Below are positions 17,301 to 23,300 of a stretch of DNA of 64,000 nucleotides, one piece after another. The stretch comes from an uncultured Holophaga sp. (GTDB taxonomy: Bacteria > Acidobacteriota > Holophagae > Holophagales > Holophagaceae). Position numbers: made by a program. The stretch lies in assembly GCA_963664825.1 (NCBI GenBank), contig OY761614.1:960001-1024000 (forward strand), written 5' to 3'. Within the stretch, counting starts at the first letter, position 1; each line of letters starts with the position of its first letter.

Positions 17301-20300
17301 GGGCATTCTCCCCGAGCCAACGATCCAGGCGACGGCAATCCCCGCACCAGGTCGCCGAATAGACCTGGAGATCGAGTCCTTGGAGAAGGCTGAGATCAGG
17401 CATGTTCCCTCCGATGAGACAGCTTAACCCGGGGTCATCCTGCCCCCTCGACGAAGGCAGCCCCCTCTTTCTATGGCAGGATAGGATGCACAGCCCAGTC
17501 ATGCTGGGACAACAGGATTAGAGGAGAACGATATGAAGCTGCGCCACGCGCACGGGATTGCCATCGCAGGACTGGCCCTGGTGGCAAGCCTTGGCTGCCA
17601 CAGGTTTTCCAGGGATAACAGCAAGGTCATCGCCAATGTCGCAGGCGAAAAGATCACGGAAAAGGCCTTCGCCGAGACCATCAAGGCCATGGTGCCCGAC
17701 GAAGCCAAGGCCAAGGAGATCCTCACCAGCGAGACCCTGCGCGATAAGCGCAACGAGTTCCTGGGCCAGGTGGCCAAGGCCAAGGCCCTGATCCTGCTGG
17801 GCAAGGCCCAGGGCCTGGACAAGGACCCCGCCGTCAAGCTCCGCATGGAACAGATGACGGCCCAGGCCTACGTGCAAACCCTCATGGAGCGCCGCCTGGC
17901 CAAGGCCCAGCCCACGGATGCCGAGCTCAAGGCCACCTACGACGAACTGGTCGCCGAGCGGAAGGCCCAGGGCCAGGACCAGGCTGTCCCGCCCTTCGAG
18001 CAGGTCAAGGCCCAGATGCCCGCCCTCTGGAAGCAGCGGCAGGAGACCAAGGTCTTCGAGCAGCTCATGAAGGAAGCCACCCAGAAATACCAGATCACCT
18101 ACGCCGACGCCTACAAACCCGCGCAGCAGTAAGGCCCAATTTGCTTTATGGGAAAGGGGGCGCTGGCGCCCCCTTCTTATGTCCCGACGGGACCAGCCGT
18201 CGCATCTTCGTCATGCCTTCCGCCCCCGCTTCTGCTTGACCTGGGTCTCCAGGGCTTCCAGCTCCGCGAGATCCTGGCGATCGGCTTCCTGGGCATCGAG
18301 CTGTTTGCGGCGGGCGTCGAAAGCCTCGAAGCGGGTATGGATTTGCTCGGACATGGCTTCGTGGCTGATGCTGCCCTTACCCTTCAAGAGTGGCAGTTCC
18401 TGGAAGGCGATGAGGCTGTCCTGCTTGCGCACGATGCGGCCCTGCCAGGTGGTGAGGGCCATGTGGGGTTGGGTGGGATCGGCCCGCTCCAGGACGAGTT
18501 CGGCCGCCGTGCGCTCGGTGGCGGCAAAGTTGTTAAGTAGTCCTTAACAACTGAACCAGCGTTCAACTCCTTTTCCTGCAATATCTTAGAGATGTGCATG
18601 CTGGTATTAGGCACCGAGGTGGCAAAAAACTCAGTGAGCTGGGCCTGGTTCATCCAGACGGATCCATCCCGGGCCATCAGGGACAAGGCGGCCTTGCCGT
18701 CATCGGTGCGGTAGAGGATGACTTGGGTATCGTCGGCCATTAAAGCAACTTTCAAAGGCTAAGGGAGGGATGCCGTTACCGATGGGAGTCCACCTGGAAC
18801 CCGGCCTTCAAGTCTAGTTCATTCCCGTCCCCACCCTTCACCGCCCATCACGAAAGAAGCCCAGGCGGGCCCAGGCTTCTCTTGACCATAGAATCATTGG
18901 GCGCTCGCGCCCCCCGATTCTATTTCCAGTGCTTCTCCACGAAGGCGTCCACTTCGGGCAGGCCGCCCTGAAGGATCAGGTAGCCGTTGTGGGGCTCCCG
19001 GGTCTCGATCTCGTGGTTGATGGCGGTGGTCATCATCTGGCGGATCGTCGCAGGGTCATCGGTCTGCCCCAGCACCCAGGCCAGCTTCATGTAGGCGGTC
19101 TCAGGCAGCATGTTATCCATGGGGATGATGCCCAGATCCAGCAGATCCCGCCCCGTGTCGTAGACGTACATCTGGGCGAAGCCCCAGAGGGTCTGCACGC
19201 ACATCACCACGGTCATGCCCTTCTCGATGGCCCGGCGGATGGCCGGATAGAGGGGCTTGTTCACGTGCCCCAGTCCCGTGCCGGCCATGACGAGGCCGCG
19301 GTAGCCCATGGAGGAAAGCCCATCGATGATGTCGGGATTGAAGTTGGGGTAGTAGTACTGGATCGTCACCTTCTCTTCGAAGCTGGGGTTGATGATGGGC
19401 TTGCGCGTCTTGTCCCGGCGGAGGATCTCCTCGGAGATGTAGGTAAAATGGCTGCCGTTGGCGTTGGGGTAGCGGCTCACGGTGGCCAGGGGGGTGGCGC
19501 CGATGGTGCGGAAGGTGCTGCGGTAGGAGGAGTGCATCTTCCGACAGCGGGTGCCCCTGTGCAGCAGATCGTAGTTGTCCGAGGTCGGCCCGAACATGCA
19601 GAGCATGACTTCGGCGATATCGCATTCGGCGGCCGTGCGCACGGCGTCCATGAGGTTCAGGGCCGCATCCGACGAGGGCCGGTCCGAGCTGCGCTGGCTC
19701 CCCACGATGACGATGGGCACGGGGCTCTGCTGGACCATGAAGCTGAGGATGGCGCCCGTGTGGCTCATGGTGTCGGTGCCATGGCCCACGACGATGCCGT
19801 CGACGCCCTTCTCGATCTCCTTGCCGATGGCGATGGCCAGGGCCTTGTACTGCTCGGGGCCCATATTCTCGCTGAAGACGCCGAAGAGCTTTTGCGTATC
19901 CAGATTGGCGATATCGGCCAGTTCGGGCACGGCGCCATAGAGCTCCCCCGGCGTGAAGGCGGGGATGACAGCGCCTGTCCGATAATCGAGGCGCGAGGCG
20001 ATGGTGCCCCCCGTGCCCAACAGCGTGACGTTCTTCTTCTTGGGGTCGTAGGGGAAAGCCTTCTCGGGAATCTTGTAGACGGCCTTCTTGTAGCCCTTCT
20101 CCTGGACAGAGACGATGCGGTCGGCGTGGATGCCCACGTTGTAGCCGTTGAAGAGCTTGATGACCACATGCTGATCGTCGGCGGTCTCGCTTCGGGGAAG
20201 GATCACGCCGATGAAGCTCGAGCCCTTGTCATTGAGGATCTCGACCTCGCTCCACACGCCGATTCCAAACTTCTCCAGCGTCTCCTTGGCCAGGCCTCGA

Positions 20301-23300
20301 TAGCCCTGGAAGGGGTTGGTGCGCTCTGCGAAAGGTGTCGTTGTCATCGCAGGACCTCCGCGGAGCCCGTGCCAGGGGCGCCTCCGCTGGTGTTGGGGCT
20401 GGAACCTCCCTCAAGCTTGGCGCGCAGGTAATCGGCGACGTCCTTGGCCGGAGCCTTGCCCAGGAGTTGTTCCATGGCGCGCCCGGCCAGAAAGCGCAGG
20501 CGCTTTTCCTGGGTATCCACCTTCTCGCCCTGGTAGCCCTCCATGGTGAGGCGGTCCACCTGTTCCTTCCACCTTTCCCGGGGCTGGATCGCCACGCCTT
20601 CGGCGCTGGCGGCCGCTTCCGCGGAAAGGCCATCCTCGGCCACACGGGCCGCCACGATGGAGATGGTCTCCCGGGGGATGAGCCCCCCTGTGAAGAGATC
20701 AAAAATTTGCACCCATTCGGAAACGCCCAGGCGTTCCACGGGGATGCCCGCCCGCTTGAGGGCCTTGCTGTGCTGGCCGATCTCGATGGCCGCCAGCAAC
20801 CCGTCCACGCCGGTCTTCTCGATGACCGCATCGAGGATCTCCGCCCCGCCCCGGCGAATGAGATACTGGCAGGTTTCCTCGGGCACGCGCCAGGACATGT
20901 AGCGCTCGATGCGCTTCCAGGGCACGGGTCGCAGGCGGGCCCGCAGACCCTCCACGCGGTCGTTGGTGACGCGGGTGGGCGGCGAATCCGTATCGGGATA
21001 CATGCGATCGGGACCGGGCAGGATGCGTTCGAAGGTGGTGAAGCCACCCGTCACCGCCTGGCGCGTCTCCTGGGGCACGCCCTGGGTGGCGTCGGCAAAG
21101 CGCAGGCGGATCTCTTCTGCGGCCGTGCGGCAGTCGTCCTCGGGGCCGAAGACGAGGAAGAAGTCGTCCCTTTCCCCCACCCGGGCCCGCTTGCGCAGGC
21201 GTTCGAGCACCCTGTGCTTATCGGGGAATTCCGGTAGCAGGGCACCACTCAGCACGATGGGCGCCTCGTCCAGGCACGCGATGACGCGGATGCGGCCGGA
21301 GAGTTCGTCCAGGAAGGTGGTATCGGGCTGGGTGGGATACTGGGCCAGGCCCGCCACACCCTCCACCTTCACGGCAAAGACCTTCCCGCCCACCTTGAGG
21401 GCCCGGCGCAGGAAGCCCAGATCCACCTCGGCGCAGATATCCGAGACATCGAAGGGCTGGACATGGATGGATTCACGGGTGCTGAGGCCCCTCGCATGGA
21501 GCTCGTCCCGCAGCTTCAACAGATTGCACTGGCGGACGCCTTCGTTGTGGACCAGCTTCACGGCGTAGCCCGCCCGGGGCACGCCCTTGATCTCGCAGCG
21601 ATTGCCACCCCGCACGCTGACATTCACGTCCTGGCGGCTGGCGCCGATCCCGGTGCGCACGCGCTGGGTGGAACGGGCGGTCATGCCGCAGAGGATGATG
21701 GCGTCCCGCACTTCCTGGGGCGAGCGCAGCTCGGGACCGGTCACGGTCTCCGTGAGCGGCATGCCCAGGCGATCCGTGCGCCACACGATCTGGTGGCCCT
21801 TGTCGCGCACCTCCCGGCAGGAATCCTCCTCCAGGCTCACATGGGTGATGGTGAGATCGCGGCCGTGGAAGGGCAGCTTCCCGTTCATGCCGATGATGGC
21901 CGTGCGCTGGAAGCCCGTGGGGATGGAACCATCCAGGTACTGCTTCCGGGCGATATGGATCTCGTCGATGATGTCCATGCCCATCATCAGGCAGAGCTCG
22001 ATGGAGGCGTCGATGGCCTCCTGGTTCACGAGGAAGGGCGGCGTGTCGTCCATCTCGTAGGTGCAGACGTTCTGGTGGTTCAGGAGGTAGATGATCTCCT
22101 TCTTCGTCTTGAATTCCATGAGGGCGGTGCCATCGTACTCCCCCAGTTCCGAGAGGGTCGGTCTCATGTGGCGCAGCACTTCCCCATCGTGGGTCTCGGT
22201 GTAAAGCCCTGCCGGGCAGCGGCAGAACAGCTTGTGCTTGGTCAGCAACTGCTGATGCACCTCCAACCCAGAGATGAGTCCTACGGCTTCGTAATCCAGA
22301 CGCTCAAGCATCGGAATCCTTCCGGTAATGGGTACACTCACGGAAGGGTCCCGCCTTCGGGGACCCATCGTCAAGCCGCAAAATCTTCTGAAATCGAGGA
22401 ATGACGGGCGTCACAGCCTCTGGACGACAAAAGACCGCCCGGCCTCCGAAAAGACCGGGCGGTTTCTATTGACGCTGGCAATCTCGGTTCAGGCCTTTTC
22501 CAGCACGGCCGTCACCAGTTTCCAGCAGTTGCTCACGGACGGGATGCTCAAGTGCTCGTCGGGGGTGTGCACATCCCACATATCGGGGCCGATGGAGACC
22601 ATCTCCATCTCGGGATATTTCTCGCCGATGAGGCCGCACTCCAGGCCCGCATGGATGGCCACCACCTTCATGGGCTGGCCGAAGAGCTGCTTCTGCAGGC
22701 CGTCCACGAGCTTCACCAGGGAAGCATTGGGCTCGGGCTTCCAGCCGGGATAACCGCCCACCAGATGGGACTCGAAGCCCGCCATGGCGCAAACCGCGGC
22801 GATGCGGTGGGTCAGGGCGAACTTGGAGGCATCGATGGAGCTGCGGGAGAGGAGATTGATCTCGATCTTGCCATCCTTGGTATCGATGACGCCCAGGTTG
22901 GTGGAAGTCTGGACCAGGCCCTGGATATCGGGGCTCATGGCCTCGACGCCGTGGGGCAGGCAAAGGATCAGGCTGATGACGGAGACCGCGTCGTGATCGG
23001 ACATGACCTGGCCCGCCACGCCGGCTTCCAGGCTCATGACCAGCCCGGGATCGAAGGCGCCGAAGGCGGCCTTCCAATCGGCTTCCTGCTTGGCCAACTC
23101 GGCCTTGAAGGCCGCTTCCTGGGCAGGCGCCAGATAGAGATAGGCGGAAGCCTCTCGGGGAATGGCGTTGCGCTTATTGCCGCCCTTGATCGCGGAGAGC
23201 TCGAAGGCGAAGTCCGGCCGCAGGGCATAGAGCACCTGGCCCAGGATGCGGATGGCATTGCCGCGGCCGGCGGGGATATCGATGCCGGAATGGCCGCCCT

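Follow-up and report, generated by a model that had tools for sequence, protein, structure and literature searches.

The window (the whole 64,000-nt stretch of DNA that was analysed) lies in a closed genome of 3,474,696 bp and carries a two-gene locus for the amidotransferase GatDE (Table 1). A genome-wide survey's note had described this locus as a gatE-gatD operon with reading frames of 655 and 475 aa and a 4-nt overlap, and our reading of the sequence agrees; a GGAGG motif lies 9 nt upstream of the overlap, within the gatE tail. A terminator-like hairpin ends the upstream dipeptidase gene, so the gatE-gatD pair is probably transcribed separately. No match to the sigma-70 consensus was found within positions 18300-22800. 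Short metatranscriptome contigs from one dataset, 95-99% alike, map onto both genes and give a weak hint of transcription, with DNA carry-over as a possible source.

Table 1. Features of the gatE-gatD locus, in window positions.
Feature	Position	Strand	Remarks
gatE	20344..22311	minus	655 aa from ATG; alternative ORF start TTG 22374
gatD	18920..20347	minus	475 aa; GatD_N domain and type-I-asparaginase-like glutaminase
ATGA stop/start overlap	20344..20347	minus	couples gatE to gatD; read from sequence
Shine-Dalgarno-like GGAAGGA	22317..22323	minus	5 nt ahead of gatE ATG; read from sequence
Terminator-like hairpin	22434..22463	minus	13 pairs, then T run; closes upstream dipeptidase gene

Both subunits exceed, in whole-protein scores, the curated equivalog cut-offs for the Glu-tRNA(Gln) amidotransferase GatDE. 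The NCBIfam scores of the earlier note were reproduced for GatD (NF003217, 480.8 bits, cut-off 310) and GatE (NF003107, 481.6 bits, a margin of only 26 bits over the cut-off of 456), and TIGR02153 (GatD, 479.4 bits, cut-off 324) and TIGR00134 (GatE, 425 bits, cut-off 319.55) are exceeded as well. In Pfam, GatD matches PF18195 (GatD_N), PF00710 (Asparaginase), and PF17763 (Asparaginase_C), while GatE matches GatB_N and, below threshold, GatB_Yqey. Assignment of GatE as GatB was rejected (131.6 bits against a cut-off of 338 for TIGR00133, and 104.8 against 314.8 for NF004012); the true GatB of this genome is encoded elsewhere.

GatD aligns over its full length with both solved GatD structures (2d6f_A, 374 bits; 1zq1_A, 359 bits), and its GTGGTIAS and HGTDTM motifs, the presence of which the survey had already recorded, match both, as does RKMH. 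The individual residues of the Thr-Lys-Asp triad, including the Thr nucleophile, we take to lie in these three motifs. GatE aligns end to end with the enzymes of Pyrococcus abyssi (1zq1_C, 326 bits) and Methanothermobacter thermautotrophicus (2d6f_C, 315 bits), and its AF2 model (pLDDT 90.1) has a Foldseek TMt of 0.83 to each of these chains. In the alignment to 2d6f_C, H19, E161, and E188 correspond to the M. thermautotrophicus residues His15, Glu157, and Glu184, which PMC2330236 names as Mg ligands. These ligands are invariant across 38 aligned sequences, and 67 GatE core positions are at least 90% conserved in bacterial and archaeal clades alike.

The regions of GatE that read the tRNA present a different picture from its core. 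The protein consists of a GatB-like catalytic cradle, an AspRS-like insertion at about residues 276-405, and a helical plus putatively YqeY-like tail at about 456-635, with the last 20 residues disordered. The insertion is present in the AF2 model, with pLDDT mostly above 89, and Foldseek links the model to AspRS chains (4ah6_A, E 2.7e-3, probability 0.99). Pfam GAD has no match in the insertion domain of this GatE and reaches at most 25.7 bits in seven other bacterial GatE, versus 84-91 bits in two archaeal ones. In known GatE, a YqeY-like C-terminal tail reads the tRNA D-loop. Here the tail is modelled as helical and the alignment reaches residue 634 of solved GatE; GatB_Yqey scores only 22.1 bits, under its gathering score of 27, versus 103-111 bits in GatE of Crenarchaeota and methanogens. 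Judged by sequence, the tRNA-reading domains are the most diverged parts of this GatE, and for this reason the substrate of GatDE may have changed.

The survey's note had called the genes archaeal-type, with archaeal nearest relatives, and here our analysis departs from it. Of more than 600 genome loci, the 80 that match best are all bacterial, and GatD of this genome scores higher against bacterial GatD (595-739 bits) than against archaeal-type GatD (258-433 bits). GatE trees rooted with GatB place all named bacterial GatE in one clade (SH-aLRT 99-100), with the protein studied here in its Acidobacteriota subclade, and GatD likewise falls inside the bacterial clade (FastTree, support 100). 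The clade includes Acidobacteriota, Bacteroidota, Ignavibacteriota, Planctomycetota, Gemmatimonadota, Myxococcota, Zixibacteria, Cloacimonadota, and others. Gene order is E>D in 59/61 bacterial loci, this one included, versus D>E in 54/54 archaeal-type loci; seven catalytic-core residues are diagnostic of bacterial GatE, and strong divergence of the tRNA-binding tail and of the insertion domains also sets the clade apart. The gatE-gatD pair belongs to a distinct, large, and old bacterial GatDE lineage. Its GatE clade is sister to one Heimdallarchaeota GatE (SH-aLRT 97-98), and an AU test did not reject reciprocal monophyly of bacterial and archaeal GatE (p 0.072). If the bacterial clade is truly sister to all archaeal GatDE, the enzyme would be older than the split between the domains and would have been kept on both sides.

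Reviews up to 2022 place GatDE only in archaea, as the earlier note had said of them, and base arguments on that distribution concerning the last common ancestor, co-evolution with archaeal tRNA-Gln, and why archaea never gained GlnRS. A monophyletic bacterial lineage spanning many phyla contradicts this distribution. Our searches of the literature turned up neither a paper on bacterial GatDE nor a measured activity of one. Judging by its record name, at least one carrier, Perlabentimonas gracilis M08_MB (locus L056), is a cultured strain, which makes biochemistry and genetics feasible.

Both genes are under purifying selection. Compared with a closed genome of the same genus, dN/dS is 0.124 for GatD and 0.121 for GatE, alongside 0.074 for GlnRS, 0.042 for MreB, and 0.202 for the M20 dipeptidase in the same genome pair; across the genus, values for gatDE are 0.08-0.14. 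GatD and GatE are 91.3% and 89.7% identical to those of the same-genus genome G111, which also preserves their synteny with the M20 dipeptidase gene. The order mreC-mreB-orf131-orf199-gatD-gatE is kept in closed genomes of genus g14, and shorter synteny, with orf199 and/or the M20 gene adjoining gatD-gatE, is found in genera g1, g13, and g15. GatD exceeds the TIGR02153 cut-off in 21/133 family genomes, this one counted, and in 7 of the 8 other genomes of the genus. The frames are intact in 19 of those 21 family genomes, and the remaining two, which are draft assemblies, have a single in-frame stop each. Among sampled Acidobacteriota genomes 65/401 carry GatDE, and whole families of the phylum are positive. 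Within part of Holophagaceae, gatE-gatD has probably been inherited vertically. The survey's claims of about 91/90% identity and synteny within the genus, of spread in the family, of host-like GC (0.636-0.667, inside the range of the window), and of constrained, old genes that are not contamination all held.

Besides GatDE, the host encodes the direct enzyme, GlnRS. Profile scores bear out the inventory in the survey's note of GatB (522.7 bits), GatA (532.1), GatC (64.2), GlnRS (729), AsnRS (623.8), and one GluRS (454.8; a second match is GluQRS), and we also find one AspRS. Neither AsnA nor AsnB was found in the closed genome, so GatCAB is needed for asparagine on tRNA(Asn), which explains why it is kept; this explanation does not cover GatDE. 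Both tRNA-Gln genes carry the U1-A72 pair that the survey had noted, together with A73, and lack the archaeal determinant A1-U72, the pair recognised by studied archaeal GatDE according to reviews. U1-A72 and a 7-nt D-loop are common to host tRNA-Gln and tRNA-Asn, while tRNA-Glu has G1.U72 and an 8-nt D-loop and tRNA-Asp has G1-C72 and a 9-nt D-loop, identities that fit discrimination by an amidotransferase. The GluRS is closest to proteobacterial enzymes from GlnRS-bearing organisms (313-326 bits), versus 229-280 bits to known non-discriminating GluRS.

Bacterial GatDE is found almost always beside GlnRS, which is over cut-off in 44/50 GatDE-positive bacterial genomes and, regardless of GatDE, in 115/133 genomes of the family; GatB occurs in 13 of the 50. 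Two GatDE-positive genomes without GlnRS and GatB are probably incomplete, since a GluRS match is missing too, and none of the 50 convincingly relies on GatDE alone. What use, then, is a second or only amidotransferase to cells with GlnRS and AsnRS? On textbook grounds neither this host nor other carriers should need GatDE, which weighs against a role on Glu-tRNA(Gln), as do the likeness of the GluRS to enzymes of GlnRS-bearing organisms, the lack of A1-U72, and the divergence of the tRNA-reading domains.

Even so, with moderate confidence we regard GatDE as the Glu-tRNA(Gln) amidotransferase of an old bacterial lineage, acting alongside GlnRS. By homology, GatE would bind the mis-acylated tRNA and phosphorylate its side-chain carboxylate with ATP and Mg, GatD would free ammonia from Asn or Gln, and the ammonia would pass through a tunnel to GatE and amidate the intermediate. 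We infer that GatDE most likely acts on Glu-tRNA(Gln) with the bacterial U1-A72 pair, supplied through some mischarging by the single GluRS, and that it may serve as a clean-up or conditional route parallel to GlnRS, for example with Asn as amide donor when little free glutamine is available. In archaeal GatE the insertion domain has been modelled as clashing with AspRS, favouring Glu over Asp substrates, according to a review; by analogy, the AspRS-like insertion kept here would favour Glu as well.

Other readings have to be weighed against this one. A tentative extension, which we hold to be somewhat unlikely, is that bacterial GatDE is an old, separately evolving lineage rather than an archaeal leftover, with its tRNA-reading parts rebuilt to do something new. 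It could form asparagine on tRNA(Asn) where a lineage has no AsnA, AsnB, or GatCAB, or it could supply Gln-tRNA independently of GlnRS and free glutamine, under nitrogen limitation or GlnRS inhibition. Outright retargeting to Asp-tRNA(Asn), or dual specificity as in bacterial GatCAB, for tRNA-dependent asparagine synthesis seems unlikely. It would suit the features that tRNA-Asn has in common with tRNA-Gln, the strong divergence of a domain said to exclude AspRS, and the lack of both asparagine synthetases in the host, but GatCAB can already make asparagine on tRNA(Asn) here, and a review describes the archaeal enzyme as specific for Glu-tRNA(Gln). AsnA, AsnB, and GatB are all missing, at the thresholds used, from 7/50 GatDE-positive genomes. 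When five of these were rechecked, four, including the closed 3.47-Mb chromosome G158, had GATase-domain matches only or none, though AsnRS is present. These four may, however, be Asn auxotrophs or have a synthetase for which there is no model. AsnA or AsnB is over cut-off in 40 of the 50, and AsnB occurs in all four closed GatDE-positive relatives (G111, G113, G114, and G118), so that there is no complementarity.

A different substrate, such as another acyl-tRNA, or a non-translational role is doubtful. One example would be a bypass supplying Gln-tRNA when a natural product inhibits GlnRS. Persistence of GatDE as a surplus beside GlnRS through deep time speaks for such a role, as do the diverged tail and insertion and the seven clade-diagnostic core changes. 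Conversely, the amidotransferase chemistry is retained complete, no conserved partner gene was found (the best neighbour cluster occurs in 8/80 loci), a tRNA of any kind lies at 3/53 loci and tRNA-Gln at none, and nothing direct points to any alternative substrate. Finally, we consider it highly improbable that gatDE was recently imported from archaea, is a contaminant, or is a relic in decay, although curated database models and reviews treat GatDE as archaeal. This reading is refuted by the closed chromosome, the host-like GC, synteny across genera, the position within the Acidobacteriota subclade of the bacterial clade, dN/dS of about 0.12, and the frames intact in 19/21 family genomes.

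Among known systems, archaeal GatDE (M. thermautotrophicus 2D6F, P. abyssi 1ZQ1) has the same two subunits, domain order, GatE Mg ligands, GatD asparaginase motifs, and fold as the enzyme described here. The genes here differ in their separate bacterial clade with its seven diagnostic core substitutions, in gene order (gatE-gatD rather than gatD-gatE), and in the much weaker Pfam matches of tail and GAD insertion; the host differs in its U1-A72 rather than A1-U72 tRNA-Gln and in having GlnRS, which archaea lack according to reviews. Bacterial GatCAB (Staphylococcus aureus 2G5H/3IP4, Thermus thermophilus transamidosome 3KFU) shares the overall chemistry, and its GatB is a paralogue of GatE with the cradle and tail in common (Foldseek E 1e-19 to 1e-27). 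GatDE is distinguished by the GatE insertion domain, an asparaginase-type rather than amidase-type glutaminase, and the lack of GatC, although in this host both enzymes would need to recognise a U1-A72 tRNA. Deinococcus, Thermus, and Bdellovibrio have GlnRS and AsnRS and also retain an amidotransferase to make asparagine (PMC4206432). The host likewise combines GlnRS, AsnRS, and GatCAB with the lack of AsnA and AsnB, and the same logic holds for its GatCAB; it does not cover the extra GatDE, whose occurrence in the family is not complementary to that of AsnB.

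The GatDE pair of this chromosome belongs to a large lineage of bacterial GatDE and is unexceptional within it. The genome-wide survey's note had placed its nearest relatives among archaea, but the best 80 of more than 600 loci in our scan (one genome per species) are all bacterial, and both subunits fall within bacterial clades. These 80 loci come from Acidobacteriota, many Bacteroidota, Ignavibacteriota, Rhodothermota, Planctomycetota, Myxococcota, Gemmatimonadota, Cloacimonadota, Krumholzibacteria, Fermentibacteria, Zixibacteria, Coatesbacteria and Aminicenantes, and include a cultured strain, Perlabentimonas gracilis. 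The best 120 of 8000 GatD matches are 81–94% identical, those with names being mostly Holophaga, Thermoanaerobaculia and Acidobacteria, while in the ten nearest GatE clusters (50% identity) the organisms named are "candidate division CSSED10-310 bacterium" and "Deltaproteobacteria bacterium".

Phylogenies of both subunits separate bacterial from archaeal proteins. In a FastTree analysis of 200 GatE rows (the present protein, 62 loci, 16 named archaea and 121 unnamed representatives), one branch with support 99 divides 95 rows containing all named archaea from 105 rows containing all named bacteria. An 85-row IQ-TREE analysis (LG+C20 PMSF), rooted on seven bacterial sequences of the paralogue GatB, joins 32 named bacterial GatE and eight unnamed representatives in one clade (SH-aLRT 99) with a Heimdallarchaeota GatE as its sister (support 98), and Heimdall plus bacteria form one of four unresolved basal GatE lineages. 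A 36-row set gave 100 for the bacterial clade and 97 for the Heimdall sister relationship. Because the alternative with all archaeal rows in one clade is not rejected in this set (AU test, delta lnL 5.1, P = 0.072), these trees favor transfer from an Asgard-like donor but do not show it. For GatD, FastTree places 53 bacterial sequences in one clade (support 100) apart from 48 archaeal-type sequences, the latter being unnamed metagenome loci chosen by an archaeal GatE profile, with no Heimdall GatD in the tree.

The bacterial clade also differs in gene order and in GatE architecture. Among bacterial loci holding both genes, gatE precedes gatD in 59/61 (adjacent on one strand in 53 of these), whereas gatD comes first in 54/54 of the archaeal-type loci that hold both (out of 80). 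The exceptions are one split locus and a Zixibacteria locus (L079, positions 5586–8878), the sole bacterial case of gatD followed by gatE, adjacent and on the same strand; since its GatE branches close to the base of the bacterial clade, this locus may record the state preceding the gene-order reversal. Pfam scores for the Yqey tail and GAD insertion are 103 and 84 bits in Pyrolobus GatE, 111 and 91 in Methanotorris, 88 and 42 in Heimdall, and 70 and 18 in Thor. The present GatE has 22.1 bits and no GAD match, and across eight bacterial-clade proteins (the present one, six loci and representative P0160) Yqey scores 19–41 bits or is missing and GAD scores at most 25.7 bits or is missing. The catalytic core drops less, from 215–227 to 148–174 bits. 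At seven core positions, conservation reaches 85% or more inside each clade but the residue differs between them (bacterial/archaeal T62/A, T84/L, Y85/V, D89/E, Y125/V, T179/L and D440/E), and 67 further core positions are common to both at 90% or more. Judged from sequence, such clade-specific changes are those to be expected if tRNA recognition had been rebuilt, whether for U1-A72 tRNA-Gln or for something else.

Several lines of evidence indicate an intact enzyme. Both subunits exceed their curated NCBIfam equivalog cut-offs (GatD 480.8 bits vs. 310; GatE 481.6 vs. 456). GatD carries GatD_N and two asparaginase domains in Pfam; it can be aligned along its entire sequence with either solved GatD, and GTGGTIAS, HGTDTM and RKMH are retained. 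GatE carries GatB_N, its GatB_Yqey match falling under the gathering score of 27, and its alignment to the P. abyssi and M. thermautotrophicus GatE structures runs from one end to the other. An excerpt of PMC2330236 reports that mutation of the archaeal GatE Mg ligands His15, Glu157 and Glu184 abolishes enzyme activity; their counterparts here, H19, E161 and E188, are invariant across 38 diverse GatE. The GatE AlphaFold model (pLDDT 90.1, pTM 0.87) matches both GatE structures best in the PDB (TMt 0.83), followed by GatB chains and then AspRS chains, so the predicted fold keeps the AspRS-like insertion. Relative to a closed genome of the same genus, dN/dS is 0.121 for GatE and 0.124 for GatD, with values of 0.042 for MreB, 0.074 for GlnRS, 0.184 for the conserved 199-aa protein (orf199) and 0.202 for the M20 dipeptidase; across seven same-genus genomes gatD and gatE range from 0.08 to 0.14. 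In one metatranscriptome, short contigs that are 95–99% alike lie on the dipeptidase gene as well as on gatD and gatE, which hints weakly that a close relative transcribes them, although DNA carry-over may also account for these contigs. These expression data consist of contigs from runs with small word shares, the one true RNA run giving eight short contigs and three "RNA?" runs being probably DNA, and stretches without contig cover are uninformative on expression.

The two genes overlap in the sequence ATGA, and their coordinates are collected below with those of neighboring and related features. Since the upstream dipeptidase gene is closed by a hairpin and T run, the gatE–gatD pair probably has its own transcription start.

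Coordinates of the gatE–gatD operon, its surroundings and related genes elsewhere in the genome
Feature	Position	Strand	Remarks
gatE ORF	window 22311 (ATG) to 20344	-	655 aa
gatD ORF	window 20347 to 18920	-	475 aa; after gatE
GGAAGGA	5 nt before gatE ATG	-	read from sequence
GGAGG	9 nt before gatD ATG	-	read from sequence
Hairpin, 13 pairs, and T run	window 22434-22463	-	closes upstream dipeptidase gene
Small conserved glutaredoxin-like gene	window 17107-17502	-	between mreB and gatD; TIGR02196, 49.8 bits, under cut-off; synteny kept in four genera
Conserved 199-aa protein	window 17533-18132	+	between mreB and gatD; no family match; synteny kept in four genera
ORF, 130 aa	window 18148-18540		without match, not conserved
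tRNA-Asp(GTC) and tRNA-Val(TAC)	window 51532-51710	-	27 nt between
Type I asparaginase, ~330 aa	genome 954975-955946		separate gene, 5 kb before window start, 23 kb from gatD
GluRS	genome 241970-243442
GlnRS	genome 248393-249985		5 kb from GluRS
tRNA-Glu	genome 819523-819597		G1.U72
tRNA-Glu	genome 828844-828918		G1.U72
"tRNA-Gln(CTG)" call (ARAGORN)	genome 3083857-3083938		82 nt; irregular cloverleaf, no proper acceptor end
"tRNA-Arg(TCG)" call (ARAGORN)	genome 3084869-3084955		87 nt; irregular cloverleaf

The distribution of GatDE fits long vertical retention with losses. Within the family, GatD exceeds its cut-off in 21/133 genomes (the present one, 7/8 others of the genus and members of four other genera) and is absent from the largest genus (62 genomes). 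The genus coded g14 has the operon at the same site in the order mreC-mreB-orf131-orf199-gatD-gatE, and three further genera keep shorter parts of this order, with orf199 and/or the M20 gene adjoining gatD-gatE. Across 401 evenly sampled Acidobacteriota genomes, GatE occurs in 65, representing 43/229 genera, and whole families are positive (e.g., 8/8, 3/3 and 5/7). A recent import is at odds with this pattern. The survey's view of an old pair under strong constraint is borne out, as is its host-like composition (GC 0.64–0.67, like the surroundings). A type I asparaginase gene also lies 27–45 kb from gatD in five relatives (G104, G111, G113, G114 and G118). In one Holophagaceae MAG (L015/G121/G133; 5.7 Mb, completeness 68%), gatD is split over two frames, and GlnRS and GatB likewise show partial matches or in-frame stops, which looks like long-read assembly frameshift errors rather than gene decay. 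Four ~1-Mb genomes of genus g2 (G001–G004) have no GlnRS, GatD or AsnB matches and represent a strongly reduced lineage inside Holophagaceae.

The closed 3.47-Mb chromosome encodes GlnRS, GatA, GatB, GatC, AsnRS, one bacterial AspRS and one GluRS, confirming that GatDE stands intact beside GatCAB, GlnRS and AsnRS. As previously noted, tRNA-Gln has the bacterial U1-A72 pair, here for both anticodons (CUG and UUG), with a 7-nt D-loop; tRNA-Asn has the same pair and D-loop length, both tRNA-Glu genes have G1.U72 and 8 nt, and tRNA-Asp has G1-C72 and 9 nt. A review passage describes such a pattern as the identity reportedly read by bacterial amidotransferases. The tRNA-Glu wobble replaces the usual G1-C72, so the acceptor stem begins with a weak pair in a tRNA against which amidotransferases have to discriminate. 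The 82-nt "tRNA-Gln(CTG)" was dismissed as a false call; both it and the "tRNA-Arg(TCG)" 1 kb away are probably either spurious predictions or remnants resembling tRNAs. In 14/50 GatDE-positive genomes from several phyla (G134–G138, G145, G149, G150, G152, G160, G168, G170, G171 and G180), GluRS adjoins GlnRS at 0.1–4.4 kb on one contig.

Co-occurrence was studied in 50 GatDE-positive bacterial genomes picked from the 80 best loci. Over cut-off, GlnRS is present in 44 (46 at E 1e-60), AsnRS in 44, GluRS in 46, AsnB in 35, GatB in 13 and AsnA in 8. Two genomes lack GlnRS and GatB, but because they also lack a GluRS match they are probably incomplete, and we found none among the 50 that depends on GatDE for Gln-tRNA. 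GatDE is the only amidotransferase in 37/50, cells that by textbook logic need no such enzyme. A dedicated second GluRS was rejected, as the host's second GluRS-like gene is GluQRS and two GluRS matches occur in just 5/50 genomes. Nor is there a conserved partner gene (no neighbor cluster in more than 8/80 loci) or an operon-linked tRNA (a tRNA gene at 3/53 loci, none tRNA-Gln).

A rival reading is that GatDE serves asparagine supply, replacing asparagine synthetase in a few genomes. The host's AsnA (TIGR00669) and AsnB (TIGR01536) were not found in the closed genome (best AsnB match 69 bits, GATase part only), 5/8 other same-genus genomes also lack both, and five GatDE-negative relatives, all with AsnB and GatB, seemed complementary; moreover, four genomes, one closed, have GatDE and AsnRS without GatB, AsnA or AsnB. 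However, AsnB exceeds its cut-off in 97/133 family genomes and co-occurs with GatDE within the family, and its presence in the GatDE-positive closed genomes G111, G113, G114 and G118 rejects GatDE as a general AsnB replacement. Without AsnA and AsnB, host asparagine must come from tRNA(Asn)-bound synthesis or import, and by analogy with Deinococcus and Thermus, GatCAB probably makes it on tRNA. We give about an even chance to GatDE being instead an enzyme that amidates Glu-tRNA(Gln), is adapted to the tRNA-Gln of bacteria and acts beside GlnRS. Putatively imperfect discrimination by GluRS would produce Glu-tRNA(Gln), which GatDE would clear; alternatively, GatDE could charge tRNA-Gln when free glutamine is low.

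Excerpts of reviews from 2008, 2021 and 2022 present GatDE as a signature protein of archaea that occurs "only in archaea". Full-text searches, with subscription journals mostly outside their coverage, returned no description of bacterial GatDE, although annotation pipelines already give bacterial genes these names. The bacterial GatDE lineage is, as far as we can find, a real and undescribed variant of the textbook "archaeal" enzyme. According to part of PMC4206432, asparagine synthesis on tRNA is the reason that Deinococcus, Thermus and Bdellovibrio keep GatCAB beside AsnRS and GlnRS, a pattern that accounts for the GatCAB of this host but not for its GatDE.
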